DNA from: Botryllus schlosseri
Lineage: Eukaryota
Assembly: GCA_051294905.1 (NCBI GenBank)
Contig: CM119372.1
Location: forward strand, 930,001 to 994,000
Reading direction: 5' to 3'
DNA length: 64,000 nucleotides
Shown here piece after piece: positions 1 through 28,688 of this stretch. Under the pieces are notes generated by a model. The model had not been told where the DNA came from, ran no database searches, and was given only the letters and a program-made list of their open reading frames with translations. Both the position numbers and the translations under genes were made by a program. Each line of letters opens with the position of its first letter. Position 1 is the stretch's first letter.

Positions 1-45
1 TCCGGTATGCCTCCCAAGCCCGTCCGATCTTTGATGGCTTTGAAA
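1..45 (-). CDS. ASIC: ASIC cassette B exon 5 (partial)
   Basis: ttttcAG acceptor at 48-46; GA+T completes Asp, then FKAIKDRTGLGGIP open to the window edge. Confidence 0.7.
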
Positions 46-3000
46 CTGAAAATATATGATACAGTGTCTTTATTGTCCCTGCATGTGTGATGTGATCTCG
101 TGTAAACTCACGACACTTCGACGTAAGCGATTAGCTACCAGAGGTTGTCAGAGTACCATATTCAGTGTTGATATACACGCGTGGAAGTAGAAGTAGCCGT
201 TTTAAAGACACGTCAAAACTACTTCAAGTAGAAGTTGTAGATAAAGAGCTGAAAAGTTCTCAAATGAATAGTTTCCAAACGTATATTTGATCGATGATTT
301 ACAAACTTTTAGAGTTAGTCCGAGGTCGCCACTTTCGAAATTGCAGGTGCATATCTTTGCAACTATACACAAAATGACTAACGACACTATAAGTAGATGC
401 AATTTTGAGAAATACTTTAGGCTATCATGATGCATGGGATCTTTTGCCTAGTTTCAATGAACGTATATCTTATAGTGATGATGTAAGCATAATCCCCAAT
501 CCGAATTGCAAAAAAGGTATTGTACCTGAAAGCTCTTGAAATAGAACATAACCACTTAGGTACTACAATGAGTACTACAAGTAAGCAAAGTCTACTTGAG
601 TACTTCAGAAAAAACAGAAGTACTTCGTTACTGACTGGCTAACGTTGGCTACAAAACTCACTCATCAGTGAAACCCATCGTGTTTTCGTCCAAGATCCTA
701 AAAATCGGCGCCGCGACCCGAAAATAGTCGTCCGTGGTGATTCGACTCAGTCGAAACGAGTTCATATTGCAAATGGTGATAGCGGGGAAAAACATCATTC
801 CAACGTCTTGCTCGTCGAGTTTGGTGACGTGAGGTCTTGAATTATAATAGGAGATTCGGTTCTCGGCCTGAAACGAAACGCGTCGAATTCGAGGCAGATT
901 CGCGAATATCGTCCTCACCAGAGGCGGTCAATGAAATCATGGTATTCAAGTAGAAGTAGAAGTAATGCTGGAACTTTCTACTCGAACACAAGTATAAGCA
1001 GAGCTGGAGAACTAGAAACTTTTCAGTTTTTCCATGTCAGTTTCGATTTAGAATTGAAGTCGCAGTTTATTTGTCAAATTAGATCAGGATCAGAACCAAT
1101 AAATTCGCAAAAAAAAACTTGGAAATTCAATTCAACTCCAAATTGGAGTTCATTCTCATGAGCGCAAGGATGATAAATATCTGTACCGAGCTTGGCTTGA
1201 TTAGAATTCAAATGAAAGAATAACAAGAATTGACGAATTAGAATACCTACATTCGTTTTCATTTGTATATTGAGAAAAATGAGCATATTATGAATGTGAG
1301 GCTTTGATCAACCAGGTGTTTCAAAAAATTTGTTGAACCTGACTTGAACTCAATAATGAACAGTGAACACTATGACTTGAATGCCGGACTCTCGACCCTT
1401 TGATTCCTGATGTGGACTCGGATTTCACTCGGTGGTGAATTGAAAATGACTCGTCCTGACTCGAAACAAACTGCAAAAGTAAAATCGACTTGTGAATAGG
1501 AACCTTGTGACTTGATCACAGTCCTGCACTTGACCACTTCGAAAAAGTGAAAGCGCTTCGCTACTTGCCGCCTCATCTTTTCCTCACCTGATGCAAAAAC
1601 AGCCCCAGCGACACGAAGAACGACACGAACCAGACCGCGCGCCGAAACTTCCCGGTGCGTTTGAGAAACACGTGACTCACGCCGTGCAGCGTAGTGTTCT
1701 CCGCGAAGAAAGAAAGGTCGGAAGGTTTCGGCTCCTCTGGCGCAGGCGAGGGGAAATCACCCGCGGAACGCTGTCAGAACAGATTGTCAATCAATCAATC
1801 ATTCAATAAATCAGTCATTTAACATCATCGTTGAAATTTTCATCATAATCAAACCATCACCAGATTGCGATATATTGAAAAGATGTAAGGGTGTCGAAAC
1901 GACTTGGAGTAGTCTTTAAGCCAAACAACCAAATTGGCCTAGAGCAGTGGTTTTCAACCTATTTGGTCTTGCAGACCGGTAACACTTCAAAACAAATGTT
2001 GCGGTCACTTGAGGGTCTTCAAAAATCAAAATCAACCCTAAATTGAGCCACAACAAATGTTTGCAACTCATATGCCGCATTTTTTATATTATATATTTAT
2101 ACGCCGTTCTATAGAAGTTTCTGCAAGGCGAAGCTCGCGAAGTCCTGTTTTAGACCACTAACTTGATTGTGATTGTTTGGACTCCATACTCCATTGAAAT
2201 AAATGCGACTTCGCTGTTTCCCTATTATCCTGACAAGTGTCGTATAAAATTGCACTAAATTTAATGAAGTTTTGGAAGTCTCTAGCTTTCACACATAATA
2301 ACGCAGCCTATCGCAAGCGAGTGATAGACTATACCTATGTAAAATTCTTACGACGTCATGCAGAAAAACACGTTTTAAAATTTTAAATCTATTGAATATT
2401 TGATGCTTTATATCTTTAATTAACGGACAAGCGTCCAACCTCGTACATTTTGGAATTGAGATATGATATTCTAATATATTTGGTGGAGCGGCAGCAAACT
2501 TGTAACGGATTGGCACCGGTCCGCGGACCCGCGGTTGAGAAGCAATGGCGTAGATAAATGTAAATAAGAGACATGCATACAGGTGAAAAGAAATTGCGGA
2601 TGAAGAGACTGGCGAATTAGAGAAGACAATGACATCTAGATAATTCAAGTTGTCTAATTCGACGAATTAATGCGAAATGCCGGTACTCAAATTATAATCT
2701 AATTTGTAAAATGTTGCTATTTTCAGTCTAATCTAATTTCTGGTTCTCCTGAAAATGCTACAGGAGAACTGAATCGTGAGAACGAGTCAAGCTCGGTGTA
2801 CAGAGATTTTTCCTTCTCGTGTTTATGTGAATCAGCTATGAGTTGATAAGAACTCAACTTGTTTTTTGTTGTATTTCTTTCAAATTTGGAATCGAATTGA
2901 ATTTACAAGATTTTGTAAATTCAGTCCTTCTAATTCTAATCTGATTCGAAAGAAATGTGTAGCTATCATTCTAACTGTAATCTAATTCGGAAAAACCTGC

Positions 3001-6000: not shown

Positions 6001-9000
6001 ATTGATTTTTGTTTTAAATGAAACCCTAGCTGTATCACTTCTGACTCAACTCTCATTGTCAGAAAGTGCGATAAAATTGGTGTGGTCGAAAAAATACCAA
6101 ATCATATTTATTGTGATGTAGAACTGACGTAATATTTTTATGGTCGCATAAAGGGCTCATATTTGAATATTCGACATCATTTCTACTGTTGTGAAGTCTA
6201 ATACTCGATTCAGAATCGAATCACTCAACTCATTTACTATATTAGGAACCTAAGGTTATTAGAAGCTTTTTCCGACATGGAAAAAGTAAAATAGTAAAAA
6301 GTTAGTAATTTGACTTAAAAAGTAGAAGTAAAAGTAGTATAAAATGTACGTAAAAAGTATAAAAACACGCGAGTAAGTATCGTATAGGCAAAACCTACTT
6401 CAATACTTGGAATAAGTAGAGATACTTCGATACTGACTACATCTGTAATTTGCCAAGTGCCACTTATTACAAGTATTCTTCAAGTATTCTTCAAGCACAA
6501 GTAGAAGTAGTCTACAGCATAACCGCTTGAGGAAGTAATGAAGTATGCAAAGTATACTTGAAGTAGAAGTACTTGGTTCCTCACCTTGTCGGACATGGAA
6601 CTCCTCCTTCTTGTCCTCGCGCCGTTTTCCTGAACATGCGACTTTGAAGTCACGATCGGAGCTACCTTGTCGTTGAAAGCCGACAAGATGGTGTGGGGCC
6701 GGCGGACAGGCGCCGTTTTATGGTCTGCGGGCGCGTGCATTCCCGCGCAGCGCGCGCACGAATTGTCGGAGATATATGCCGACGGCGCGGGTAAAGCCTT
6801 GCAGGACTTCCCGCCGATATTGGAAACGCTCGATGTCGTGGCCTGGAAAGGTAATGAAATCACGTAGACTTATGATAAGTTGACTATACGTTCACACGTT
6901 AGTAGCTGCAATGAGACTTGGACAACTAGATAATTCTAGTTGTTTAATTATATCGAAATGCATGTGATGTATTTCTAACCTAATTTGTGAAATTTTCCAT
7001 GCTTAATCTAATGTCTGCTTTTCCCAAAAAAGCTACAGGAGATCGAGAGAAGTTTGCTGCACAGACATTTGCCATTCTCGTGCATGCTTAATAAGAATAA
7101 ACTGTGACGTCGATATGAGCTGATTTTGAACTTGATTTTTGTAGTATCTCTTTTAAGCAGGAATTGATTTCAATTTCCAAGTGTTTACGATTTCAGCCAC
7201 AGTAATTTGATGATTATGTTTTGACAAAAGAACTATGTAGCTATCATCGTAATTCTAACGTAATTTGAGTTGAGTATTTAAAAGCCACCAATTACGACCT
7301 CAAAACATTATTAATGGCTTGAAAAGGTCAATTGTGCACCTTTTCATCGGTCACAGGGAAATTACGATGGTTATTAGATACATAGTGTACGACTGGACGC
7401 AGAAATGCCGTTCCATGAATATTCGTAACCTTGTGCACCATGTTTTCTGATGCTGAGATATCAATTCTTCAACGGCGAAATAAAGTATCGGAAAGTATTA
7501 AGATATCGCTCTTGTCGGGAAGGCAAATATTTCTTATTAAAAAAATCACCTCTAGCTAATCGAACTGAATCATTACAATTGATACTCGGCTCGAATTCGG
7601 CTCCAATCATTGCCCCAGCCCTTTGCAAGGATTTCTACTTTGCGGAGTACTCAAGTAAGTTTTGTCCTACTTACACTACTTACTCAAGTGATTGTGATAT
7701 TAGACTACTTCTACCTCACAGCCTTCAGCTTCTTTACAGCTGAAATTAGACCTATATTACCTACTCTTACCTATAGTTTAAAATCAATGCATCACACTTC
7801 AATCCTACTTTTTACCGACTTGGAAATCACTACTTAGCAGCAACCAGTTTATAGGCAAAATTAGACGTACAATATCTACTTTCTACTTAGTCAGAAATTA
7901 TAAATTCTACTTGGGGTTGAGCAGAAATCTAGGAAGTTACGACTACTTTCACTGAAGTACAGTAAAGTACAGTTTCCTCAACTATTGTGAGATAGGAGCT
8001 AGTTCGTGGACGAATTTCAATCTAGAGAATACGGAAAAAGCCCTGGTTAGTCTAAAACGCAAGGTGCGGATCCTAATGACTAATTCGCGTATCGAGTTCT
8101 TGTCATGTTAAGACTGGGAGCTCTGACGAATGACGTTTCGATTAAATTTCGCGAGACTGAAATGATGACAGGACTTCAATATTGTGTTCACATCGTGAAC
8201 GAAATGCGTCGATCCGAAACTGTCAGCTACCATATTCTTTACGCGGCGCAATCGCCAGCGCGTGGCCACTATAGGGCTGGGCGCAATGGTCCGAGTACTC
8301 GAAGTCAAATCGAGCAATAATTCTAATGATTCGAGTCGAGCAATGTGAGATGACATTTTGCGTATTGAACTTTGTGCAACGGAGAGTGGATTTATCAACA
8401 AGAATGATAGTTTCGACACTCTTCCATTGTGGAAGGTTTGAAACCTCCATTATCCGTATCTCAATACACGAAACATAAGCTACGAATATTACTGGAAATT
8501 TGGTGTCGCCACGCGGGATGCGATACGATGATATGTTCAGGTAATACGTCAGGGCATCACACGAGCCCCAGGGGTTCGCTGGATGTCAAGGCACATACAG
8601 GACTTATACGGCAGAAGACACACTGATTCGCAGTAAATATTCATTAAAATCTGTTCTGTTTGTGTTAAAATCGTGTTTTAATGGTATGATTCTTTTAACA
8701 CCGTTGTGTTAACACCGTTGTGTTTTAACACGGTTCATTTTGTGTACTATAGGATTCTATAGAAATCTATTATATTTGTAGTTTGGTTGATTTATGTTTT
8801 TGTGGCTAGGCGAAAATTTGGGGCTCGCCGAAAGCTAATAGATACTTGTGTAAGAATTATCCACACTGCGCTATGTGTTTCATATTGCAACATAGCTGCC
8901 ATTTGTGATTGGTGAAGGGCTTGTCCACACATGATCGAGCATGACTTGGGCATGTGACTTTGATTATATGGGTTAATATTTTGCCTACGATGGGTTAAAG

Positions 9001-9366
9001 GTTAATTTTGGGATTAAGTCGCATGCTCTACTCATTGTATATCATGGGGTTGGTGATTTTTTTTAAATTTCATTGGCGTACGCCATGAAATTATTAGGTT
9101 GCCTAAAAAACGCTGCACATCAAATTTGGCTGAATTACGACCCGTAGAAGCAAAGTCATGGGAGTACAAAATCTTTGACTTGAAATGAATAGTATTTACG
9201 ATGGAGAATTCTATCATTTAGTTTTGCCGAAAAATTGTTTCTGAGTATGTGTCGCGTGTGCTCAAATATCTGGAAACCCTATGAAGTAACTGGTCGCCGC
9301 TGAAAATGGAAGATTACATGTCGAAAGATTGTGACTCACCTTACCAGGGACGACGTTCATTCTCAT
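1..9366 (-). CDS. ASIC: ASIC (DEG/ENaC) N-terminal cassette B: long cytoplasmic N-terminus, HG motif, TM1 and start of the ectodomain; continues off the left edge
   Basis: Exons 9366-9340, 6842-6585, 1770-1588, 867-662 and 45-<1, all GT-AG, phases 0,0,0,2 consistent. Translation MRMNVVPGK|ATTSS...MSDK|RSAGDF...FAENTTLHGVSHVF...WFVSFFVSLGLFLHQ|AENRISYYNSRPHVTKLDEQ...[13 protein letters not shown]...|FKAIKDRTGLGGIP carries the TxHG, PHVTKLDE and FPAITICN signatures. Confidence 0.85.
662..867 (-). CDS. ASIC: ASIC cassette B exon 4
   Basis: tttcAG acceptor and GTGAGT donor; [42 protein letters not shown]... Confidence 0.93.
1588..1770 (-). CDS. ASIC: ASIC cassette B exon 3 (HG motif and TM1)
   Basis: 183 nt, 61 codons: RSAGDFPSPAPEEPKPSDLSFFAENTTLHGVSHVFLKRTGKFRRAVWFVSFFVSLGLFLHQ; ctgacAG acceptor, GTGAGG donor. 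Confidence 0.92.
1945..2547. mobile_element. hAT/Charlie-type MITE
   Basis: TIRs CAGTGGTTTTCAACC / GGTTGAGAAGCAATG; degenerate 8-bp flanks GCCTAGAG / GCGTAGAT. Confidence 0.6.
2630..3005. repeat. Dispersed ~380-bp CTAATT/ATTCTAATCTAATT-patterned repeat family
   Basis: Recurs near 1040-1260, 6920-7270, 9810-10115, 26010-26350, 29025-29345, 44320-44645 and 48660-48930; shared core CTGAAAATGCTACAGGAGAACTG. Confidence 0.7.
6585..6842 (-). CDS. ASIC: ASIC cassette B exon 2 (N-terminal extension)
   Basis: GC-rich 258-nt open exon, ctttccAG acceptor and AAG|GTGAGG donor, phase 0/0 in frame with exon 3. Confidence 0.72.
9340..9366 (-). CDS. ASIC: ASIC cassette B first coding exon (MRMNVVPGK); exon 9411-9340 includes 5'UTR
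   Basis: ttttatcAG acceptor at 9414-9412, in-frame TAG upstream of the ATG at 9366, AAG|GTGAGT phase-0 donor. Confidence 0.55.
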
Positions 9367-12300
9367 GCCAAGCCCGGATGATTCCTTGAATAATAGCTAC
9401 TTCCGGTTTCCCTGATAAAAAGGAAATATTCGTTACCGCGGGGATTCGTTGTCACGAACATCATCACCTCTTTCCTGCCTACAGATTTTGAAAACTAGAA
9501 AATGCTCAGCTATTCCAAATTTGACCTATCGATCTCGCTTCCCATGACATGCCGCCCTATTTCTCGTCGCTTTCTTTTTCTATACTATCTTCTTTACTTT
9601 CATTCAGTGTGCATGCCTCCTCTTTACATCGCCTAGGCCAAGGTGGGTGTCCGATTCCATAGACTACTCCTTGTCGCTTCGACATCTTCCTGTCTTTTCA
9701 TTGTATCGCATTTTATGTGGTGTATTGAACTAATAAAATTGCAAATAAACCAATGATGATGAATGATGATGATTAAAATTATAACTAGAATGATACGCAT
9801 AAACCATTCTTCCAAATTAGGTTTGAATTTGAATTACCGCAGACCTGGAACTTGAATTAAACTTCGATTTAAATAGAAATGCGGCAAAAATTGAGTTCAG
9901 TTCATGTGACGTCACATTCGATTCTCACAAGCATGAGAATGACAAATACCTGGACACCGATCAATATACAGTAGCACAGTTATATAGCATTTTCAGGAAA
10001 TCAGAAACAAATTAGAATTAAAATGAGAGAATAGAAACATATTACACATTATAGTACCGGCATTTCGCTTTAATCCGGCTAATTAGGGAACTAGAACTAT
10101 CTATAGTTGTCCTGGTCTGATCCCTGACTATCTGCGAATCTCAACTAATTTCCTTCAAAAACTTGATTGGAATTACGCATGTACTCGGAATGATACGCTA
10201 CGGCTCAACTGGATTCAGGATTTCAGCCGCTAGGCTTTCGCGTGAGCGAAACGACCGGTAACAAAAGAGCACTCTCTTACACTGCATGCATCGGTCTAGT
10301 TTCTTAGTTCACTGTCATATGCAATGTCGCACATTTTTTCTTGTACATTTTCTTCCCGATCGATCGCGCGATGGGAAAACGAATGACGACAAAGACAGAA
10401 CAATCGCCGACTCGTGAGAGTCATCCGCCTTGTTAACTAGTTGGCAATATTTGTCGGCTCTCTAGAGATTCACCGATATGAGAATTGCATCGTTCTTGTA
10501 ATTGCTATTTCGTTGTGACGGGGCCCGGGACAAATGAAAGATGGGATAAACTTCACCGAACCGAAATTACCCCCAGTTATAGACAAATAGTAATAGTTCA
10601 GCTTCTCCTAATGAGATTAGAATTACAATGAGAACTACACGACTTTTCTCAAATTAGATTATAAAATTAAAAGTTACTGAATGCGAAAAGGCTTGGAAAT
10701 TGAATGAAATTCCGGGTCCCTTCATTTCAAATCAAATATTTATAATCCCACCAACCGCTATTATAAGCACCGCAACATAAGTATATTGTTAAATAATATT
10801 AATAATAATAATTTGTACGGTTCAAAAATAAAGATTTTCTATGTGTCAGAAACCAGAGATTAGTATAGATTTGGAGTTGGATCGGAAATGGATTGTGAAT
10901 ATTTTGAAGATGGATTTATGGATATGGACTTGAAAATTGTCGCAACACAATTTTCATGTAATTTTTGATCAAATGTCAGCCATTACCGGATTTTGACTTA
11001 GATGTGGACTGGACGCAATGCAGAGTAAATTGCAGATTTGGAATTGGATTTGTATTTGGATCAGTCTAGTCAGAGCTCGAGATAAATTCTCGCTTCTCCT
11101 TTTATGTCATCTTATTTTATGTTTCATTCAGTGCGCAAGCCTTCTCGATACATCGCCCACACTCAAGTGGCTATACTCCAAGTCATTGTATCGCAATCTT
11201 GTGGTGCATTGATTGGATGAAATGTTTAATAATAAACCGAAATCTAGAACAAGATTTGGACTTGAAAATATCAATTCTGATGATCTCTGCATGATACGGT
11301 GTTATTTCATGTGCCGCGGCGAAATAGCAAATAACTCATTCGACATTTAGCGATCGCAAAAGTCCATTAACTGCTTCTGTTCGGTGTTATGCGTACCGAC
11401 AGTCAATGCGGGTCTTTTGGGACTTCGATTCTATCGATTTTCGGCGAGTAACGACAGGATTATAGCGAAAGTCGAGGGGTAGTGACAGTAGCCTGGTCCG
11501 TTCGGAGACGCTTTATAGGGCTCCGACTTTTACAAACATCTTTAGATTCACTCCAGACTTGACGTTCGGTTGTTACGAGGGATGGGCAGAGCGATTTAAG
11601 TACTCAAATCTAAATCGAGTATTAATTCCAATAATTCGAGTGTAGTAGTTCGATATTTTTTAGTACTGTAATTATCAACTCCTTGACACAATAAGAGCTA
11701 ATTTATCGACGGAAATATAGTTTCGATGCTATTTTCCACTGTGGAATTCTTGAACTTTGATCGGTGGTATCGCAGCATACAAAACATGTAATATAAAGCT
11801 ACGCATGTAACTGGAAGTCACATCTGTGAAGCCGTGATCAACCCACAGCATTTTCACAAGGTGTGATGAAATAGGTATGGTCGGGAAATACCAAGTAATC
11901 TTTGATATTATCTGGCAATATATTCTTCGTGGTGACATATTTAAAATTTTGACAACATTCATACTGTTGTGAGTAATCGAATCACTTAGGTACTCGATTT
12001 TGCTTAGCCCTATAACGATGCTGTAAGTTATTGCTCGAACCAGGAAATAATCTCAAATATATTTCAAAAACTATAATATTCCAATTATGACCTTTACTTC
12101 AAGTCGACTCTGATTTAATTGGACTTTCTCAGTGGCGCAAAGCTACCCCGACAAAAAAAACAACTTTGACTAGACATTTCATAACACCGCCTACGGCCTC
12201 GATTAGTGCCACCGTTCCGCCATTAGTTATTCGGTATCCACGTGACCATCGATTATATTAATTCCCGCATCCATTAATCGATCGCATCGGTAATAACCCC

Positions 12301-13696
12301 GAAGATTTTTTATGAATAATAAATCCGTAACAAACTAGTTTCGACTTTGCGAATAAGTCACAAAATTTTTGTTACAATCATGTTTTTGAAGAGCTTCTTG
12401 GAGGTACAGAACTTCAATATACAATTAAATAGTATATTCATATTTCATGTTTTTGTATTGTAATTTCTGAGTCTAGTATGATCTTGCGAGTCGAGTCGAA
12501 TGTTCGCGTATCAATCACCATGGCGCTATAACAGTATGAAAATATGTGGGAAGTTCCGCTATGTACCTTTTATGCTTTCACAGCACAGCATATAATGCCA
12601 GTTCCACATCACATTAAAGATATCTTGGTATTGCTTCGACCATTCCTATTTCATTTCACTTTGTGAAAAAAGGGTCATCACTTCGACTCGATTCCCGATT
12701 CACCCGATTTTTTTTCACAAACCTCTGACGTTCGCTGCGTCGGCGTCGCGTTTGCATTTTAAGACTTTTTATAGTTAAAGAGGACAAATTCCCCAAAAGA
12801 GGACATTTTGGCGTCCTACGAGGACAGCACTTTCAATTTATCGAAAAAAGAGAGGACAAATCCTCTTAAAAGAGGACGTATGGTAACCGTAACTAATACT
12901 CGATGCAGATTCGAGTACCCGAATCGTTGTGCTCAGCTATAGTTACGATTCCACAACATTCGCAAATCTGTTGAACATAGGACAGAGCATAAAAAAAACT
13001 AACACAAGTATCACGATCAAGTCGCGAACCAATACCCAATTCAATTTATATCGAAGCCAATCGATTTGTACCAGAGAATTCTCTGTCCAAATTTTATTCC
13101 TCTGTTGTTATTCATTATCTAGTCATTCCAAGAAAAATCACTCATTAATATTAATGCAAAATATAGTTGTGTCGCCAGAGAACTGCCGCTGCGGAGTTAC
13201 AGTCTGGCACCAGACTTACGAAGAAGGGCATTTGAAGATTTGAGATGCTCTGGAACTGCCAATCAACAGGGAGATCGAACCGACTACAGATCTTGCATGC
13301 GTTCAATGGCAGGCATCCATATTGCACAAACATGGCTCATCTACCGCAGCTTTCGGTGATGCGATGTGATGCATACAAATTTCTCTGCTGGTTGATGACG
13401 ATTACCCTTGACGAATGTCAAGGTTAATTTGGGGGTTAATTTAAACATGAATATACTGTTCAATGTCACATTGAAGTCATGTATACCCCGAATAGCTTTT
13501 CTATTGACTAGTAGCATCTCTCTCTTCCTACAATTATCGCTGATAATATAGATCAGTGGCAATTTCTCAGTATAGTTCTCTAGTGTGTGAGGTGTATTTG
13601 TGCTAGTAGGTAAAACCTACTTGAGTAATCTGAAATAGAAGAGATACTTCACTAATGATCACTTTCGCTTACGAGTGTCCAGATGGAGTAATTTCA

Positions 13697-13890
13697 TTGT
13701 GTCAACAAAAAGAGTTCGTGTACCATCTGAAAATAATACATTGGGCGCTCTCTTATTGGAAATTTCATGCTGGTGTGGTGTCGTCTTATTTTATGATATA
13801 GGCCTACTATGTTCTTTCCAATTCTCTGCTAGTTGCTGACGAGTGTCAGCCGAAAAGATTCGGGTTCATTTCAATATGAATATACTATAT
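13697..13890 (+). mobile_element. Penelope-like element 3' fragment with hammerhead core
   Basis: Homologous to 41290-41468 (LCQQKEFVYHLKI); CTGACGA-GTGTCAGCC-GAAA at 13836-13855. Confidence 0.7.
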
Positions 13891-15916: not shown

Positions 15917-18900
15917 CATAGGCGCCGACTTTTATTTTTTTACGAGGCGGCGCAGTGTTGTGACGTCATAATTCTTCCATGTCGATTACGTCATCGTCGC
16001 ACATAAACGCACTTTACTGCATGCCGCTGGCGTTCGTACAGAGTTGAACCATCCGCGTGACATTTTAATATCGGCGTCGCACTCAATAATATCAAACCAG
16101 GCAGTCGAGTTTATTAAATGGAATCTTAGAACGGTACGATCATTTGAAGTGTAACTGCAGCCTGCGCTACCTGTCCGTCCGACGGAACCTGCAGTTGCAT
16201 CAATGTTATTCACGCGCAATGCCCAGTGTGACTAACGAAATACACTACGCATTGGCCTTGAAAGTAACACACGACAACTCTCGAATACTTCAAGCAGACA
16301 ATAATAATGATTACAAACGCGAAATCGCGCGGCCAATCAGTAATTGTCTCTTGCGGTTTCTTGCTTCGCGTTGACCAACTCGCATTACGGCGACTGTTTG
16401 ATGATTAAAACAATGATGCATTTCCCGCTTTAAGTTCGCGAAGCATTTCGGGAGTTCATCGGGCAATTCGTAAATTCAATCTCCATGCCGATGGCCGCCA
16501 ACGCATACCAATGGAATCACGTGTTGACGGCCGCACAAATTTTGTTCTACCGCCGCGGGTTGTCCACCCTTGGGCTAGAATAAATTCCACTTTCGGACAT
16601 TCGATAATGTTTTCTCGATACGAGTACATCAAGCAATCAAGTTTATCGGAATGTAGAAGGTTCCCTGTTCAAACGAATCGAATAGAATCAGAATTTGTGC
16701 CACCCATAATCTTGTGATGCATCACGTTAATAATGAAAGGAAGACTGAAAAATGACTTTGTGTGACAATTTAGGAGTACGAATGTATCAAGTAGGTAACA
16801 AGAAATATCGATGATGGCAAATTAGAAAGCGTGCAATCTAATCAGTATCGCCACGAATCGGTTTTGAGTGTGACATCGTATTGATTAGCTTTCGCCGCGA
16901 CAATTGTTTTGTCATTATATCGGTGTTAAAGCTGTATTGCTGCATTTCCCGATTAATGTCACTGGCAGAGCTTTGTTAGAGAAACGAATCTGCGCAGAAA
17001 TGAATTCCAATTTGCTGGCACACACCAACACACCCTCCAATTTCGCGCTCCGATTACCTATCACGAAGCTAGCTAGCTCATGAATGGTTTTGTAAACGGA
17101 TATTGGTGCAAATAATTTAGATTTCAGAAAAGCAGAACGTATATTTGGGCGTCTGGTCAGCAGAGGATATCTAGGATTGTGCTTCTCAGCACACGCTAGG
17201 CGCGTAGCCAGTGAAAAATTAGGGGATTTGGATTTTCTTTTCAAATTTGGATTTTCTTTTCAAATTTATCAATATAGCATCAATTCAATTAGGGTCAAGT
17301 ACATGTGTAATTGGCGATCATATAACCTCTCCGTATCGACGATTTTAGCCGTATGATATGCTTGCCAAAGAGTCCTGGAGTGCTGTCAATTATAGCGAGT
17401 CACAGATCTCTGGTCAACAATTAAATACGCGCGCGTATTTCGCAGTCTCGGCTAGAGTTTTCGCAAATCAAAATGTCCGAACTCGATGGCACCGATTTCA
17501 AACCTTTATCGTATTTCAGAACTCGAGACATGATACACATCTTCCGGTCGTTACGTTCAAGTATTAGCGGGAATCAATTTCGCACGTTAAAGTCTGTTTG
17601 CAGCGATTTGATGTTATACAGTTTCGCGATGTCGCTTTTTAACCAATATGACAACATGACATAAAACAATCACTGATCAGCGTAAACTCGACTCGATCGC
17701 ATTGTCTCGAAACCAGCGAGAAATCGGAGCCAAAGCATGCTAGACCCGAGATGCGATAGTTAGGCATAGGCCAGCAATTATATCTTTCACTCCAGGCCTA
17801 TTGCAGATGCTATTGTGTAGGGCTGGGCAAAATCGAGTACCTGAGTGATTCGATTCTGAATCACGTAATATGCTTCGAGTCGAGTCGAGTAATCGAGTAT
17901 CACTCATTATGACGTCATAACAGAATGTAATACGTCAAAGTTCAAATATGTACCGTTTATGCCCCCACAATTGCCACAAAGATTATAATGCTTGTTATCC
18001 TTCTCATAAATTATAATTTGGTATTTTTCGACCATACCGATTTCATTCCACTTAGTGACAAACTGACAATATTGTGGGATAATCATGACTTCGGAAATGT
18101 GCTACGTCCAGTAACCTTCGTAGCTTTGTACGATATGTTTCGTATGCTACGATACCGCCAATCAAGGTTTCAAGACTTCAACAGTGGATGATAGTATCAA
18201 AACTATAATTCTAGAGATAAATTAACTTTCAGTGGCGATAAGCGTATAATTTCAGTGCTCGAAAAAATCGACTTTTGCTACTCGACTCGAATCATTAAAA
18301 TTAATACTCGATTCAGATTCGAGTACTCGAATCATTGTGCCCAGCCCTACTATTGTGTAGACCAGCGATGATATCGTGTACACCAGGCTAAAGCAGCCAA
18401 TGCAGATTTGATTGCGCAGTTAAGCGATGATATAGTGTGAACTGGGCCTATTGCAGATGCGATTGTTGAAGCCTGCGGAACCAGGCATGATCGAGACGCG
18501 ATAAATCAGGCTAGCGACGATTGCCACGCGCACGGGAATGAATGACCTAATTTCGTGACCATCTCAGCGGGAGATCATCACTGATTCGTCTCGCTAGTTG
18601 TCAACACGTTTCTCGCAAATCCGTCGCGCGGAACACTGATTACACAATTATTGAATTGCAACTGAATATTAGAGTTAAAATGATCATTTAAAACTGACGG
18701 GGTTGCGTGTTTCAAATAGGGAGTTCGACCTCCGAAACCCCGGTGGCTAAGAGCCTGGCACACGCGCGTATCGAAATCAAAGACATCTCTAACGAGGTCG
18801 CATCGATTTGTCTTATTACTAATTACTGGTCACAAATCACTTGGGCGTTTGAGCATTTTGTACGAGGTGGCCGCCACCTCGTAAATATGGTCACGAGGTG

Positions 18901-18938
18901 GCTGCGCCACCTCGTAACCTCGTAAGTCGGCGCCTATG
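15917..18938. mobile_element. Nested DNA transposon (hAT-like, 8-bp TSD)
   Basis: TIR CATAGGCGCCGACTT / AAGTCGGCGCCTATG; TSD ACTAGGAT at 15909-15916 and 18939-18946. Confidence 0.85.
17818..18349. mobile_element. TAGGGCTGGGCA-family hAT MITE (third nesting level)
   Basis: TIR TAGGGCTGGGCA / TGCCCAGCCCTA; TSD CTATTGTG on both sides. Confidence 0.88.
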
Positions 18939-19049
18939 ACTAGGATATTAAAAAAATAATTCACTTCTCTTTAGTATCCCATTCATCAAAGAATTGTTTG
19001 AAGCGGGTCCAGAATGGGTATAGTATTCCCCACCAGAGTGGAATTAAAC

Positions 19050-19397
19050 TAGGCTTACCACTTTTTCAGAAATTGGAGACTTGCAAAGCTGGAGTAGAAT
19101 TCTCAAAAACCGGTCAATTTTTCCCACTTTGTGACCGGTTGACTGAAAAAAAAGGTCATCTTTCCGCTCGGAGCTCAATATAGCGTTTTTCGCTCCGAAA
19201 TACCCTCCGGAGCGCCACTTCTGTGCTAATTTACGGCATGTCACTCGCAATTTGCTCTAAAACTGACCTCAATTTTCAAAAAAGAGAAAGAGGACAAAAT
19301 CTCAAAAAAGAGGACAAAAGGGCGTCCTCCGAGGACACTTTCAAAAAAGTCGAAAAAGAGGACAAATCCTCTTAAAAGAGGACGTATGGTAAGCCTA
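19050..19397. mobile_element. hAT MITE (GAGGAC-rich family)
   Basis: TIR TAGGCTTACCA / TGGTAAGCCTA; TSD AATTAAAC on both sides; related pieces near 12780-12890, 21686-22057 and 27350-27755. Confidence 0.85.
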
Positions 19398-20053
19398 AAT
19401 TAAACCCACAATCACACAGTGAATGCGGGGAACGGATCATTGGGTTTCGCTACTTGAGTGGAACAGAGGGTGTACGCAAGAGTTATACGATTGCAGGGCT
19501 GTAACTTTCGCACCCCTAACCCACAATTGGGATAGCTCTAAGTCTAATAATTATTTCGTTGGTTGTCTGTTGGAGATTTATTTACCTCGAAATTTTTCGT
19601 CGCGCTTCGCGCGATTTCATGTTCCCTCAGATCGACATTTAAATATGAACGCTGAACAGTAATAAAAGAAACATCCGTATATTATAAAGAAATAGCCATA
19701 TCGGCGGCGATAAGCCTACATATTGAAATGCACTACGACTTGAAAAAAGGAGGGCCACAGAACATTTTCAAACCAGAAAATGGGCCACAGCCAAAAATGG
19801 CTGAGAACCCCTGCTCTATACAGTTATGGTAACCATGGAACTGGCGAGTTCAATCAATCAATCGACAGATTATATTTTCATTTGACCAAGACACATACAC
19901 AATGTACAATGCGATATACAAGACACATAATACCGTATGCTGTGCTGTGTCATTTTCAGGAAAACCAAATAAGATTAGAATTAAAATGGGATCATAAAAA
20001 CATTTCACAAATTGATCATTATCGACATTTCCCTCTAGCTAGTCCAATTCGAC

Positions 20054-21214
20054 CAGTGGTTCTTAACCTCGCCTGCAGCGCCCCCAAAGAAGCGCTGGCG
20101 ATATTAAAGGGGGCGGTAACGCTCAGCGAGCGGTAACGCTCAGGGGGCGATATTGGGGGCTCTGGGCTCAGGGGGGGCGATATGGGGGCCGCTGAAGAAA
20201 AATGGTTTCGTAGCAGATTATGTGGTACTAAGATCCAATATAAAAGTCCCGAAAAGACCGACAGGACTTTCACCTCTTACCAGGACCGAAACTGCTGCAG
20301 CCCAAACCCCCAATCGGTGAGCTCGAAGGGTGCCCTAAATTATTTCGGTGAACGAACATAAATTACACATCATGTTTTGACGACTCCCCAACGGCAAAAT
20401 ACGCATAATTATAGAAAATAGAAATAGGCATTTCGGCGTCGGCCATCACCACGCCATGATGCACGAAGACATGAAGTTCCGGTCAATATGGGACTCCGAG
20501 CAGTGTGTCAAAAAAGATCGTCAGCGAGAAAATCTTAGCCGAAGAGGATTGCCCTTATGTTGACCGTAAACCTCAATGTATATAAGTCTAATTGTCCACA
20601 GGTGCTTAAATCGCTCGTGCCGAATTATCATGTCGTCGCAATCTGCACCCCACAGGACAAGTAACCTCCATCAGGGAAAATTATTTGCCAGTGAAGAAAT
20701 ACCAATTTTAAATCGTGTGCTTACTTTAGTTTAACACGTTTATGCGTTTCAAGTTTTTTTACTATAACGGACAAGAGCTAACAAAATAACACCATGTAAC
20801 TAATTGATTGTACCAACACGAACGCCCGAATATGTTCAATTATTAATTACGTGGCCTTCATTTGCCAATACAAAAGCCCACTCAGCGCTACTGGTAAATC
20901 TGATTACGTGAGCTGAGAGCATAAAAAGTTTATAGCGACATACATATGCAATTGCCATCTATTCATTCATGCATTATAGAACATTTTGGCGCATGCCGAC
21001 CAACGAAATCACGCGACGGGGTTCTTGACGGCGAAGCCCTGAAATGTTTGGTTTATCACGCTATGGGTGCGCAAGACAATCGTTTTTAGGGGCCTGTTAC
21101 GGCCCTCTCTCTAACCCATTGTTTTCATTACAGTCCTTACAATATGAGGTGGGGGCGATGGAGTACGATAATTTTTGAAAGGGGGAGCTAGAGGATAAAG
21201 GTTAAGAACCACTG
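20054..21214. mobile_element. hAT/Charlie-type non-autonomous element
   Basis: TIR CAGTGGTTCTTAACC / GGTTAAGAACCACTG; flanks AATTCGAC / AATGAGAC; GGGGGCGA subterminal repeats. Confidence 0.75.
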
Positions 21215-21271
21215 AATGAGACCATTGGAATTATCTAGTTGTACTTGTACAATTCATGTCTGATATATACG

Positions 21272-22057
21272 TAGGGCAAGTTTTTGCAACTTTTGCAACT
21301 TCTTTTTACAGCTTCCGGCAGCTTCCTAAATACTCGTAAGATATGTAGAATGCTGTTTTAAGCTGTTTGAACGAATCTTATAGTGCAATCTTTTGCAACT
21401 TTTTTCCATTTTTTCATGCAACTCTTTGCAACATTTTGCAACTTTTGCGATTTTTCATGTGAGTATTTTCGGTTTTGGTGAAATACACGGCCAAATTCGA
21501 CTAAAACACCGTAAATCAGCACCGAAATACGGGTATTTCGGGAGCTGAGCCGGTAAATTGACCTTTCCTTTTTTTAGTCAACCGAGCAAAATGTGGTCTT
21601 TTAGTGCAACTTTTGCAACTTTTGTCAAAAATAGATAAATAAATGCAACTTTCCACGGATTTAACTGCAACAAAAACTTACCCTAGTTACCATTTTTGGA
21701 AATCTGAAAAGAGGTCACTTTATAAAAAAATTCAGAATTGCAAAACCGGAGGAAAATCCCGAAGAAATGGTAAATTTCTCCCACAATGTGGTCGGTTGAC
21801 TAAAATAAATGTCAACTTTCTTGCTCAGTGTCCAAAATACAGTTTTTCTTTCACATTGTTAGGTGGTTGACTTAAAAAAGGGTAAATTACCCAGCGGAGC
21901 GTTACTTCAGTGCTGATTTACTGTAGCTAAGTCGATTTTGCCATATATTTAACCAAAATTCTCAAAAAAGAGGTCATTTGGGCGTCCTCCGAGTACACTT
22001 TCGAAATAGTCAAAAAAGGGGTCAAATCCTCTGAAAAGAGGACGCATTGTAACCCTA
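21272..22057. mobile_element. Composite of two MITEs (TTTTGCAAC-repeat element abutting a GAGGAC-family element)
   Basis: TAGGGCAAGTTTTTG...CAAAAACTTACCCTA (21272-21685) followed by a GAGGAC-family element ending GTAACCCTA at 22057. Confidence 0.55.
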
Positions 22058-23633
22058 TGTATAAGGATACAATTTTACAAACCGAAATCTCAGCATATCT
22101 TGTGAAGGCAATTAACGAACTGTAAGTAACAGTATTTCGAAACGGCTATAATCGGACTCGACTCGTCTTTCAATCGCGAATACGATTAGCATCTTGAACC
22201 CGACAATCCGATTTAGACTAACATCTCAGGCTATAGAGTCCAAAATACTATCGAAGTAGCTATACGCTTTGCCAAAAGTGACAGGGAGAAGTGAAGGCAA
22301 TGACTACTGCATCATTCCTGGAGAACTTGAGGAAGCGCACCTACTTGTTTTTGCTTATTCTGTTCGATTAATTTGTAATAATCGATATTCTTGAAGTGCG
22401 TCTAACTTGAACCACCCATTATAAACTTCGAGAGTTGGTCAGAAATTGCAGACGTACATCAACGAAGTACTTGTACTTGTTTAGATAACTTTTACTTCTT
22501 CTGTTTTTAGGTGAAACTACTTATTTTTTACAGTTGGTTTCTTGAAAAGTAGAAAGTAGTTGGCATCACTTATATAAGTTAAATTGTAATTACCATGCTG
22601 GGCGAACCAGTCCCTGTATCTCGATAGCTAAACATATTTTCGAAAATTGCACATATTCGTCTTGTTATTAGACATTTTGTGTTAGTAGCGAATATACCAG
22701 ACTTGTAATGAGTCGAGTCACACAATGCGTAATTTTTCGTTGACTCGACTTGACTGGGGTCATCACAAGCCTGGTTTATTCCATTTCTAAGGAAATGATT
22801 CTACTCGACTAAAGTCAATTTGTATCGACTTCTACTCGAGTCATTGCGCATGACTCGGCACGTTCTATTGAAATCTTTTATATCAGGAGCAATAATTATA
22901 ATTACAAAATAGTCCCTGAAACACTGTTTTTTGTTTGCTTGAATAAGCATCTTTACAGTGAGAAAAATAAGTATATTTTGAAGCCGAGGCCTTCTATATT
23001 TCCCAAGAGTTTTACAATGGTGAGTTGAACCTGACTTGAAGTCGAACTAGAACCTGGCTCTGTGATGATTTGAAAATCACTCGACTTGAAAGTGGCCACA
23101 TCTGATTACCTGTTAAAGTATGCGACCTATCAAGTAAGTCTACTTCTTGAAACTATTGCAGTACTTTTCAGACTTCGATTTTCTACTTCCGCTTAAAGTG
23201 GTTTTGAAATGTTTCAAGCTACTTCTATTTCTACTTGAGCAGTAATTTACCGGGTTACTTTCACTGGAGCTCCAGACGCTCATTACTTTGACCACCTCTT
23301 GAAATGAGACCATTGCAGGAGCGCCGCAGATAAATCATGGATAATTAACCTTCGGAATGTTAATTGTCGGCTTTTATTTGCTATTTATTTTAGGGTAGTT
23401 GCAGTGCCCATGTCTGTATTATAATTCATATTTTCGGAATCAGTGCGACAGTAGCTTTCGTTCAAGATCGTTACAGTCGTTTGGCAAACTATAACATTAC
23501 CAAACCTCTTTACGAAGTTACCAGATACTGTTAGTGATTTGTGGTTGCCCAACCGTGCAGTCACGTGTTTCGTATCCCTCCGTATGTTGGTTATCTTTAG
23601 TAACGACATCCTTGGTTAATAAATGGAGCTCAC

Positions 23634-23751
23634 TTTTTTGAAAAAGGTTGTGTTGCAGGTTTTTCCGCGGTACGTGCAGCTGAGAAGATACTCGGAAAGC
23701 TCGTGTCCGGTACGGTCGTAGAATTCTGTCATGTTGAAATCTCCCTTCGCT
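23634..23751 (-). CDS. ASIC: ASIC cassette A exon 4
   Basis: catttcAG acceptor, AAA|GTGAGC donor; [12 protein letters not shown]...[11 protein letters not shown]. Confidence 0.92.
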
Positions 23752-26700
23752 CTGAAATGATGGTTTGTTCCGATATCACTGGTCGACACATATTTTTTTG
23801 CAGACAAAGTAAATGTAGTTTTGGGGGTTCTGAAGGGCACTGATTCCGAATATGTCCTTACTTTTTTCAAATTGTCTCTTGTTTTTTAGATAATCCATGG
23901 GACTATTTTGACCAAAATTCCCCATTTTCGCTGTAATGGCTTGATAGAAAATCGGCTCAGTCGTACCATAAAGTTTAGAAATTCAATCTAGGCCTACTAG
24001 ATATTTTTTACACAAAGAAGACTTTTTTAAAATCAAAATACAGCAACAGCACTATATTTAATGTTATTAGATTTGTCATAGTTATAGACTTTCACGTATA
24101 TTATCTTGCACATAAATAAACTCCAGTCATGTATATATAAGTATTTACACATATACTAAAATAACGTGGCATTAATTCAATCAATTTTACGTCAACTACC
24201 TATTTTAAATTGGAAATAATCAGTTGGAATATCATATTATTAATTAATGTTGAAGCACAATTGTTTTTTGTTCGATTTTCGCCTGTAAGCAATTTAGTGC
24301 GGTTTCGCGAAAAGTTCTAGGTAGTGATGTTATTCTCATCCATACATATACACACAATATATAATTCCATGCAAGAAGGACAGTGTCATGCAATGAGCAG
24401 GTATATCTATCAGCCGGATTTTTTGATGTGAAAGGGATCTTTGATAAATCTTCAACTTCGCATTTGATGAGCTTCTTATTGATCAATGTCTCTGAAACTT
24501 TTTCTTATTATATTTTCGTAACGGCCAGAATCAGTAACTGAGTCAAGTCTATTATGTGAGGTCATGAGAGTGGCGTATCCCGGGGCTAAGGATCTAGGAA
24601 ACCCCCTTTCCACATCCAAAAATTCATTGCCTGCTGATAATTGCTCATTTGTCAGTCCAATATATATAATAATAGTGCTTACATGAGTACGAACTCTGAT
24701 TTGATAAGAAATGTACTTGATCTTTGTGATCTTTGTTGTACTTTAATCAAATTCGGAATTTAATCGAATTTCCAAGTTGTTGCGAATTCAGTAATTCTAA
24801 TAGTAATCTAATTTTAAAAAGCTACAATTCTAATTTTAATAACTAGCAAACATTCGATAAAGCGAAACGTCAATAGACAGCATCTAGTGACCACAGTAAA
24901 CGGATTTTCACGTCTTTTCGATTTTACACGGAACACATTGATTATGTGCTGTTGACAACGGAAAGAAATTAGAGCGCAGTTGTCATATATTCTGTCCTAC
25001 GTGAAGTCGGTCCTGAAATTCGTCAGCTTTTCAATCCATTTCTTCTGACGTTCGAGCTCCTGGTGCGCTGAGAAATCGGTGATGTTTCCTTCGGCAAGGC
25101 TTCTGAGAAAGGGAGGCTCGAGCATCTCGTCGTCCTTATTCAGGAAACCCAGTAGCTGCCCTGAAAAAGTCAGTGAAAACTGAAAAGTGCCAATTAGAAG
25201 TAGAAGTAGTTTAACATCATAACCACTTAAGGAAGTAGTGCAAGTAAACTAAATTTGCTCGAAGTACTTCTAAAAGGGAAAGTACTTCATTACTGGCAAC
25301 CTTTGGTGCTAGGGATGAGGCTGGGGTGAACAGTTCGGTAAAGTCTACGAAAATTTGCAACTCTGGTCAGACTTGATTCGAGTCATGACACAAGTCATTG
25401 CAACCTTGGTATGTAATAATCAGTATTCGGGTTACAGATTAATGTTAAGTGTTAGGAGCTAGGTTAAGCGTGAGATTACGAGTTGCCTGGTGCCGAATGC
25501 ACTTGAAACATTCCTTTCATCATGGCATTTTTATTGCAATACTGTATGTTTCTCACCTGCGAAGTACATGTCGTTCTTGGTGACTTCGTTGAGTCGAAAC
25601 TCGTTCACGTTGCAAATAGTGATAGCGGGGAAGGTCAAATTGCCGGCTGCGACTTCGTCCAGTCGCGTTACGTGAGGAAATTGCAAATAATACACGGCAC
25701 GGTTGGTGCTCTGAATGCAGACATCGCAGTTTTAGGGTGTATTGCAGATATGCCCCTTGAAAAGTCATTGGAGATCTCCTAAATCGGTGATAGTTGACAA
25801 GCTATTAAACTTCTCCCGATTAATGACTGATTGCCATCTGTGTAACGCAAGCCAACCGATTACTGACGCGATCGCGGATTGATCGGGATCTGTGCAATCC
25901 ACCCCGAGGGCTCCCCTAAACGCATTCCTTCGCAGGATTAACGGGGCAATAATTGGCGTTTTGGCGCTAAATCACATTTGAAAAAGGAGATAATAATATA
26001 GTTATTAAATTAGACAAATTAGAGCGAAATGCCGGTAATCTAATTCTAATCTAATTTGAGAAATGTTCTTACATTTTAGTTCTGAACTAATTTCTGATAT
26101 TCCTGAAAATGCTGCAGGATAACTGTATCGTGTGAAACGATCCAAACTTGGTGTACAGACATTTGCCATTCTCACGCTTTTGGACTGAACTCGATTTTGT
26201 TGAAGCTCCTTCTAATTACGAATTTAATTCAATATCCTGTTTGCTGCTAATGCAGTTATTCTGATTATATCTAATTAAATAAAACTGTGTAGCTATCATT
26301 TTAATTCTAATCGAATTTGGAAAAGCCTAAATATATCTTAGTTTTCCAACTCTGTTTTTATCAGAGCAGACAGCAGAGTCACACGCAATCAGGCTGCAGA
26401 TGACGCCAGACCTTTCTCTGCAAATCGCGCCGAGGTGTCGTTCATTAATTATTAATTGTTATTAAACAGGTTCAGAAAATATTCTCTTTGATCTTGCTAG
26501 GATTCGAGATCACATGCAATATTGATGCGACGAACTGGCGCGTCTGTAAACGGACTGCCATGGTATTGATGTCGAGATCATCCATAGATAACTATAACCT
26601 GCGGATAGACGCACAGCACGTGACAGCACGGTTGGGCAATCAGATGCAAATTTATAAATCTGTACTGTTGCGAACCACTTGAGGTCATAGTTATGGTCAC

Positions 26701-28688
26701 TGCATTGCGCAGAGGTGGTCAAAGTCGTCATCGTTGGTACTCAAGTAGAAGTAGAAGTAAAGTCGTACATTTCTACTCGAGTACATGTAGAAGTAGTGAT
26801 TTGAAAGAAAGTAAAAAAAGTATATTCTATAGGACTAGTTTTGCCAAGGAAACTGAAAATTGTTCAAGTAGAAATAGAAGCGCAGAAGAAACATAAACAG
26901 GTGAGGAAATAGTGTACTTCGGCAAAATCTACTTGAAGTAGAAGCTGAAGTAATTCGTTACCGACCACCTCTCAAAACATGCCCATGTTCAACAATAACA
27001 GCAATTTTGAAGTAGTAGCAGTGCCCTGAGTAGATTATAATACATATTTTCCGAATCGATGCGACAGTAACTTTCATTCAAGATCAATTTTCATAAATTT
27101 ACTGTAAAATTACCGTGTTTATTTATGAATAGGGCTGGGCACAATCATTCGAGTACTCGAATCTGAATCCTAATTGTAATGGTTCGAATTGATTAGTGAG
27201 AGACGATTTTATTTTTCGAATACTGAAAATATACGGTCCTTGCCACTAACAGATGGTTTAACAACGAGATTTGTAGTTTAGATACTATTTCCCACTACGG
27301 TAGCCTTGAAACCTGAATTGTTCGTATCACAGAATACCAAACGTTAGTATGCCCGCCAACAGGATTTTCCCTCCTTTTTTAGGAAATCTAGAATGTCATC
27401 CGAGGACGTCTAAATGTCCTCCTTTTTGGAAATCCGTCCTAGTTTATAACTTGGACAGTGGGCAGCCAGGGTAATGGAAAAAAAATGAAGCGAAATCTGC
27501 AATGCGGACGTTCGAGCGGGTCATTGGGGAGTAGCATTGGAAAATGATCTCTTATGTAGTTATGACCACAGCAGTGGGCCTATAGATAAAAAAGTGGGTA
27601 CATTTGGAGTGTAGTCGGAATGATGCCATTTTTAGTCAATACAACAAGAATTAAAGAGCAAATTTTCTAATCAGTAATATTCTAGTACGCTAATCCGACC
27701 TTTATGATTTGTAAGAAGTGTCCTCCTATCCGGATTCCAAAATATGGTAACGCTACGAAACATATTTAATGAAAGTTACTGTATATGTACGTTAGTGGAT
27801 ACGACGTATGTATCAAGTCGTGATCAACCCATGCACACTTGCACAGTTGCACACTTGCACAGTATTGTCACAAGCTGCAATTAAATAGGTATATTTGGAA
27901 ATTACCAAATTGTCTTTACTGCCGTGTAGAATTGGCATTTCATTGTCCGTGATCGCATAAAATGTGCATGTTTGAAATTCCCACGTCATTCTGACATCAG
28001 ATTGCGCGACACTCGAATACTTGACTCTACTCGAAGCCTATTGCCTAATACACGATTCAGAATCGAATCATATAGGTACTTGGTTTTGCACAGCCCTGGA
28101 AGCTATGAGGAATTGCTAGCTGCGTCTGATTGCCCAACCGTTACTTAATCAATAGACCAAGTCTCCCCGTACGCCTAAGCCTACGTCTACCCCGCTAGAT
28201 AGCGCTTTCTCTTTGTTTGTGTTTGTTTTGTGGTATTCATGGTGTTAGTCGACTACTATGGTCATTTACACCAGGCCGATATTCTTCTTATTTTCCGTAA
28301 CTGCCGACTTATGGCACGGCCCACCTCTAGGCTTTTTGTAAGACACCGCGGATGAGGTGGCGAGGTGGAGCCTAGGTAAACCTCCAACACTTAGGTATCG
28401 GAATTCGGAAGTCGACCCGCACCCATTGGTGTTTTGCAGCCGCGGATTATACTACTGCGCTATCTCGCCACCCAGCGCCTTCTCTTCACGTACCTGAAAT
28501 ATGAGCAGAGTGAAACTGGTCAAAAAGGCCATTGCCCACGCGAATCTTCTCAGCGACGAGTGATGTCTCGCGAAAACGTGACTAAATCCGTGTAGAGTCG
28601 AGCTTGCTGCAAAGACGTGAATATTCGCCGGACGGTTGTCGTAACTACTGCCACGCGACTCTTCGTCGTCCATTAGCGACTCTCCCAT
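23634..28688 (-). CDS. ASIC: ASIC N-terminal cassette A (ASIC1a/2a-like, 209 aa), ending in an open phase-0 donor
   Basis: Exons 28688-28494, 25710-25557, 25160-25001 and 23751-23634, phases 0,1,2,0. MGESLM...[14 protein letters not shown]...[45 protein letters not shown]...[15 protein letters not shown]...|[35 protein letters not shown] aligns by eye with the first ~185 residues of vertebrate ASIC1a. Confidence 0.93.
25001..25160 (-). CDS. ASIC: ASIC cassette A exon 3 (finger domain)
   Basis: tttttcAG acceptor, AC|GTAGGA donor; [53 protein letters not shown]; phase matches both neighbours. Confidence 0.88.
25557..25710 (-). CDS. ASIC: ASIC cassette A exon 2
   Basis: cattcAG acceptor, G|GTGAGA donor; PHVTRLDEV and [13 protein letters not shown] motifs. 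Confidence 0.93.
28213..28473 (-). mobile_element. tRNA-derived SINE family 1
   Basis: tRNA-like head GGCGAGATAGCGCAG, (AAAC)-like tail, 12-bp TSD AGCGC(T/C)TTCTCT; homologous to 52118-52377. Confidence 0.78.
28494..28688 (-). CDS. ASIC: ASIC cassette A exon 1 (ATG, HG motif, TM1)
   Basis: 65 codons ending [23 protein letters not shown] matches ASIC1a FASSSTLHGLAHIF. Confidence 0.93.

Follow-up and report, generated by a model that had tools for sequence, protein, structure and literature searches.

Does a locus that carries two N-terminal ASIC cassettes in tandem hold two channel genes, one gene beside a broken copy, or one gene with two alternative beginnings? The question arises in a 64,000-nucleotide stretch of the Botryllus schlosseri genome (C2:930,001–994,000; hereafter the window), where both cassettes lie on the minus strand. 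We examined the locus in a 495-Mb assembly of 219 contigs, all of which were scanned, and also read the adjoining 20 kb on the left; positions are window positions unless a contig is named, and left is the side of lower genome coordinates. We found one ASIC gene on the minus strand, spanning ~36.8 kb (C2:921,899–958,688), and consider it very probable that this single tunicate ASIC orthologue makes two subunit forms, started from two promoters and joined to one back end.

One set of common exons beyond two N-terminal cassettes

The exons common to both forms occur as one set only, left of the window (C2:921,899–928,964), where the first-pass annotation of this stretch had proposed that a single set be sought. 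The first of them, C1, begins in phase 0 at C2:928,964, 1,036 bases left of the window, with the acceptor ttccag/GTCTAC.. (the slash marks the splice site) and the peptide VYTRYGKC. The common part goes on to encode the Cys-rich exons, an exon with the GAS motif and second transmembrane segment (TM2; ..GLFIGASLLT..) and a C-tail that ends in ..ETDIH. The last exons of the two cassettes, A4 and B3, both end in phase 0 and are therefore compatible with C1.

The ASC domain (Pfam PF00858) that marks DEG/ENaC channels is present across the exons of the gene: exon by exon, matches on C2 covered model positions 37–167 (cassette A), 38–91 (cassette B), 147–222, 218–267, 267–323 and 427–455. The HG motif precedes the first transmembrane segment (TM1) in both cassettes (..TLHGFSHVF.. 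in A1 and ..TLHGVSHVF.. in B1), and the stop-to-stop frames of the minus strand contain the ASIC pieces quoted in the first-pass annotation.

The claim that the interval between the cassettes holds no exon for VFTRYGKC, the Cys-rich thumb or TM2 stood up to every search made of it. A whole-genome scan with the ASC model (38 matches among 54 scored candidates) gave two matches inside the window, both N-terminal (model 37–167 at 25324–25719 and 38–91 at 715–873), and placed model positions 147–455 once, left of the window. The same scan recovered a complete N-plus-C series at five tandem genes on C7 and at three at C2:6.52–6.55 Mb; it finds C-terminal exons at other loci, and the method therefore does detect such exons where they are present. 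With the isoforms of the tunicate Styela clava as queries, tblastn at E ≤ 10 placed no C-terminal ASIC exon in 9412–23633, the single match (E = 8) being noise, and the gene's own common exons, compared with the whole window by tblastn and blastn, gave nothing below E 0.05.

Beyond the window the picture was the same. S. clava isoform X3 gave 20 matches in the genome, 13 of them at the ASIC locus and the other 7 at C7 paralogues (29–44% identical); for isoform X2 the locus took 13 of 19, and the rest again fell on C7 paralogues of 29–44% identity. No second close C-terminal exon set was found by profile scan, tblastn or blastn in the window or in the rest of the 495-Mb genome.

These searches bear directly on the idea of two tandem ASIC genes, the upstream of which has C-terminal exons that were missed. 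All that speaks for it is the general tandem habit of DEG/ENaC genes, as seen on C7 and at C2:6.52–6.55 Mb, and against it stand a hidden Markov model scan, a tblastn search and comparisons with the gene's own exons that yielded no C-terminal piece in the window, although that same scan had no difficulty in picking up the TM2 exon at each of the other loci. We therefore regard two tandem genes as extremely improbable.

More distant DEG/ENaC genes form tandem arrays at C7:8,930,000–9,050,000, C2:6,516,000–6,549,300 and C14:10,820,000–10,828,500. Each gene in them has its own N- and C-terminal exons, unlike the ASIC locus, where a single C-terminal set serves two N-terminal ones.

Exon structure of the two cassettes

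Cassette A consists of four GT-AG exons between 28688 and 23634, 627 nt (209 aa) in all, with a phase-0 end; as first proposed, it encodes the N-terminus, the HG motif, TM1 and the first third of the ectodomain. Exon A1 (minus strand, as are all exons below; ATG at 28688, to 28494) carries the N-terminus, the HG motif and TM1 and ends with ..LLIFQ in phase 0 at a gt donor. Its identity to S. clava isoform X3 is 81%; X3 was also the one matching protein of 115–2000 aa when A1 was used as the query, and an RNA contig that extends to 28714 gives A1 a 5' untranslated region of at least 26 nt. Exon A2 (25710–25557), with post-TM1 ectodomain, is placed by the Pfam ASC 37–167 match and RNA junctions, and exon A3 (25160–25001) by tblastn, splice sites and an RNA contig. 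The last A exon, A4 (23751–23634), has a weak ASC match and ends with ..TTFFKK/gtgagc in phase 0. The tblastn placements of cassette A with the S. clava isoforms (28688–28494, 25713–25555, 25161–25015 and 23756–23619) follow these exons.

A second, homologous cassette does begin at 9366 and run past the left edge of the window, stopping 165 bases beyond it. A tentative first coding exon, Bs (ATG at 9366, to 9340; MRMNVVPGK/gtgagt, phase 0), is predicted from its letters and is in frame with exon B0. B0 (from 6842 to 6573 or 6585) would supply an N-terminal cytoplasmic extension and matched residues 17–88 of S. clava X2 weakly in tblastn (E 0.009). Exon B1 (1770–1588) carries a KPSD.. box, the HG motif and TM1 and ends with ..LFLHQ/gtgagg in phase 0; exon B2 (867–662) encodes post-TM1 ectodomain (ASC E 1.2e-9) and has a GA/gtgagt donor in phase 2. 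Exon B3 starts from an acceptor at 45 (one at 78 scores equally), extends 165 bases past the window edge and closes with ..FWKE/gtcagt in phase 0. For cassette B, the tblastn placements were 6773–6552 (weak), 1773–1588, 870–682 and 32 to 216 bases left of the window.

The exon boundaries also bear out the claim that the cassettes have one phase-0 intron in common, right after TM1 (..IFQ/STNR in A and ..LHQ/AENR in B), and differ in the others: after TM1 there are three exons in A versus two in B. Over 173 columns, the two cassettes are 34% identical. Two copies so unlike, with different intron layouts, are hardly what a false duplication or misjoin in the assembly would leave, and nothing in particular speaks for one; A and B moreover each fall in an orthologue clade of their own (see below), and contigs from independent runs match both regions, so we give an assembly artefact almost no credence.

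The same switch point in other chordates

Pairs of isoforms that change over at the same place are present in the annotation of several relatives, where all of them are computed gene models. The closest relative found was S. clava, whose isoforms X3 (P0002, 666 aa, A-type) and X2 (P0003, 839 aa, B-type) are identical from VFTRYGKC onward bar one residue and the end of the tail; the ..ETDIH end of S. clava X2 is like that of Botryllus, whereas the cassettes themselves differ, being 69% (A) and 48% (B) identical to those of the window over ~173 columns. In Ciona intestinalis, isoforms X2 (P0004, A-type) and X1 (P0006, B-type) differ upstream and are identical from VYTRYGKC onward, so that, as in Botryllus, A- and B-type N-terminal thirds precede one common sequence, and they fall in the same tree clades. 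Over the same columns, window A and Ciona A are 62% identical, and the Botryllus B cassette is much more diverged: it is 50% identical to Ciona B, whereas S. clava B and Ciona B share 65% identity. The amphioxus Branchiostoma floridae has a like pair, isoforms X1 (P0105) and X4 (P0122), which are 49% identical upstream of VFTRYGKC and identical from there onward. Apart from the switch point, the one-residue difference between the two S. clava isoforms (..KDAVSN.. versus ..KDVSN..) and the difference in the last part of their tails point to further alternative splicing in that species, to judge from the protein models.

The vertebrate counterpart is the pair of forms made by ASIC1 (1a/1b) and ASIC2 (2a/2b), in which alternative N-terminal thirds join common exons right before VFT[RK]YGKC. 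Vertebrate ASIC cassettes are generally single first exons without an acceptor; those of Botryllus are split into four or five exons. The position of the vertebrate switch was taken from the models P0014 (640 aa) and P0019 (632 aa), and that ASIC1 and ASIC2 each yield two splice variants is stated in PMC6790391, as the first-pass annotation had held. Both models carry 'a' followed by part of 'b' in a row before VFT[RK]YGKC, and are evidently read-through errors of gene modelling.

This comparison also lowers the novelty at first assigned to the locus, which was overrated: gene annotations of two further tunicates and of amphioxus already show the two-form arrangement, and a/b names exist in the Ciona literature. 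Coric and colleagues, in a 2008 abstract, are said to have described two splice forms of the Ciona ASIC. What the present locus adds is a clean gene model, resolved to coordinates, for the two forms that one more tunicate has of its single ASIC orthologue. The same switch point is now seen in all three chordate subphyla, which is useful for comparing how the region near TM1 tunes gating; otherwise the arrangement is the one expected for the ASIC gene family. A 'CiASICb enhancer', credited to Coric et al. 2008 (FASEB J 22:1914, pmid 18211956), is referred to in a 2026 paper, and two reviews report the Ciona ASIC as not proton-gated (PMC6790391; PMC2780683).

Transcripts and the probable route from cassette A to the common exons

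Among the runs listed as containing sequence of 23400–28900, none is recorded as RNA. Four public runs were compared with positions 8901–28900 of the window, two of them (X6, ~6% sampled, and X10, ~13% sampled) as bulk RNA raw reads. A contig of run X2 (record 14; 636 nt, minus strand), in the placements listed for all but its last 100 nt, matched three separated exon blocks, 28714–28494, 25710–25556 and 25159–25001, and therefore represents spliced RNA; its junctions (28494/25710 and 25556 or 25557/25159 or 25160) are the predicted A1–A2–A3 sites. A contig of run X1 (record 5; 228 nt) matched 23632–23831 and carries 28 loose letters beyond the A4 donor. The match passes the end of A4 by 2 nt, and C1 begins with GT as the intron does; none of the B exons, whose first letters are GCC.. 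(B0), CGT.. (B1), GCC.. (B2) and TTT.. (B3), predicts an overrun of 2 nt. The overrun is thus suggestive of a join from A4 to C1.

We infer that A4 joins C1 in this species, and the claim that cassette A splices past all of cassette B onto exons left of the window gains support from the single C-terminal set, the matching 0/0 phases and the switch point of the relatives. The A form would start at a distal promoter upstream of 28688, take in A1–A4 and splice from the donor at 23634, over a 24,669-nt intron holding the whole of cassette B, to C1 at C2:928,964. The B form would start at a proximal promoter near 9.4 kb, run through Bs, B0, B1, B2 and B3, and be joined to the same C1. Both proteins would then have the same palm/thumb Cys-rich ectodomain, TM2 GAS segment and C-tail to ..ETDIH, and would differ in the cytoplasmic N-terminus, in TM1 and in the ectodomain's first third. 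In vertebrate ASICs, it is the variable N-terminal part that sets gating and proton sensitivity (PMC6790391), and by analogy the two Botryllus forms probably differ in gating and in site of expression.

Several observations weigh against this account. The A4-to-C1 junction is not displayed among the contig joints listed, and record 5, which contains a further 80 nt from before the A4 acceptor, is no clean mature mRNA. Runs X6 and X10 give next to no depth on the A exons, and as the comparison with the runs spanned 8901–28900, exons B0–B3 fall outside it and expression of the B form is a prediction. Exons B0–B3 have normal acceptors, B0 and B1 are in frame with A4, and a mechanism for skipping them was not found. 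Cassette B is, finally, strongly diverged, with a branch of 0.99 in the tree described below and the low identities to S. clava and Ciona B given above.

The missing display of the junction and the near-zero depth of A exons in the two bulk runs would suit a cassette A that is a truncated partial duplicate, transcribed to a dead end and contributing to no full channel subunit, as would the demanding nature of a 24.7-kb skip past four usable acceptors. Such a copy should nevertheless have decayed, as the low identity between A and B makes the duplication an old one, yet cassette A keeps an intact 209-aa frame with canonical splice sites, and its first three exons are correctly spliced. It is, moreover, closely similar to the A cassettes of S. 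clava and Ciona (62–69%), which are annotated as joined to common exons. On balance we consider a truncated duplicate improbable. The first-pass annotation had named two outcomes as telling against a single gene: on the first, C-terminal exons between the cassettes did not turn up; on the second, a cassette A that no transcript joins to downstream exons, the RNA demonstrates transcription and splicing for A1–A2–A3.

The ordinary acceptors and phase-0 starts of B0 and B1 raise a separate difficulty, since something must therefore keep A transcripts off these exons. Transcripts from the A promoter might instead mostly join A4 to B0 or B1 in frame, yielding a long fused product or a non-functional RNA, with the clean A form rare. 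The exon structure allows it, as phase-0 boundaries occur at A4, B0, B1 and B3 alike and the B acceptors are good, and there was no RNA-pairing signal that would loop out the B cassette. A protein with two TM1 cassettes, on the other hand, would have the wrong topology; the annotated A isoforms of S. clava and Ciona go from the A cassette straight to [VF][FY]TRYGKC; and the 2-nt overrun of record 5 fits C1 and not B0–B3. We accordingly judge that fusion to cassette B is unlikely to be the main fate of A transcripts, and continue to favour one gene whose A transcripts skip the B exons.

RNA pairing of the docking/selector type was examined by comparing the B3–C1 intron with all upstream pre-mRNA, and was rejected as the means of looping out cassette B. 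The only pairings were between inverted copies of dispersed repeats, none of them beside the A4 donor; the best duplexes reached −64 and −57 kcal/mol (with 27310–27330) and −53 kcal/mol (with 8401), where the best of 30 shuffles reached −52 kcal/mol. The one point of this locus with some reach is mechanistic: the way in which transcripts begun at the distal promoter pass over four proximal exons that are spliceable and in frame.

Age of the two cassettes

Whether the a/b switch is ancestral to chordates or arose again by cassette duplication had been left as an alternative. A tree was built from 29 cassettes and 174 columns, with ASIC1b and ASIC2b represented by incomplete stretches taken from P0014 and P0019. 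Window A fell inside a tunicate-A clade (support 100/96) that is sister to the vertebrate 1a/2a/1c cassettes (84/79). Window B fell, on its branch of 0.99, inside a tunicate-B clade (100/100), which amphioxus X4 joins weakly (57/87); vertebrate 1b sits with ASIC4 (84/93) and not with tunicate B.

An A/B duplication confined to tunicates was rejected: forcing all nine tunicate cassettes into one clade cost 23.8 log-likelihood units, with p-AU 0.0084 in the approximately unbiased (AU) test, a test run after the tree had been seen, on the alternative that the first-pass annotation had itself put forward, and to which the long B branch could contribute. A clade of amphioxus X1 and X4, as a duplication specific to that lineage would give, was not rejected (p-AU 0.28), and an origin before the chordates diverged can therefore not be claimed. 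Of the two alternatives first offered, the tree and the AU test speak against a duplication within tunicates. No paper on the age of ASIC cassettes was found for Branchiostoma, Oikopleura or lancelet splice variants, in a search whose reach left out most subscription papers.

A broader reading, which we hold to be possible rather than probable, is that the a/b design arose a single time, in the common ancestor of tunicates and vertebrates or earlier. Cassette A would then be the orthologue of the vertebrate 'a' cassettes (1a/2a/1c) and cassette B a second old lineage, possibly with amphioxus X4, and the multi-exon make-up of the cassettes would imply a mutual-exclusion mechanism that has not been described. 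The divergence of B, with no like divergence in A, could reflect relaxed or shifted constraint on the B form.

Repeats between the cassettes and neighbouring features

The interval 9367–23633 (minus strand) comprises part of the predicted 24,669-nt intron of the A transcript and the region upstream of cassette B, and is without ASIC exons. About half of it had been ascribed to transposons. As far as repeats go this is plausible, since of the 14,234 bases in 9400–23633 at least 5,733 (40%) belong to dispersed repeats, a lower bound in that 39 of 43,309 candidates were scored; protein evidence did not follow, as no transposase or reverse-transcriptase domain was found in the 65 open reading frames of at least 85 aa in the window. 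One element (15904–18945) is a composite non-autonomous repeat of ~3 kb with at least 15 copies of 84–96% identity, itself interrupted by another repeat at ~17821–18350. A second non-autonomous family (20051–21217; 1.2 kb) has at least 25 copies at 80–86% identity. RNA genes were sought with Rfam at the gathering threshold and with ARAGORN, each with 0 matches.

Two copies of a 102-nt repeat, 85% alike, lie at 19295–19397 and 21956–22057. In run X10, hundreds of reads were stacked at 19353–19387 with loose ends that carry sequencing-adapter letters, which points to inserts of very small size, derived from either a repeat fragment or an abundant small RNA. Directly after the A1 donor, in the intron and outside the coding part of the gene, there is a tRNA-like short interspersed element (SINE; 28247–28470, minus strand) that drew neither an ARAGORN nor an Rfam call and that the RNA contigs cover at a very high, multi-copy depth (words up to ~94,000 deep in run X1). 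Upstream of the ASIC gene, an open frame on the minus strand (55836–56099) matches the rhodopsin-family G-protein-coupled receptor domain (7tm_1, E 4e-10), and marks a receptor gene or a fragment of one.

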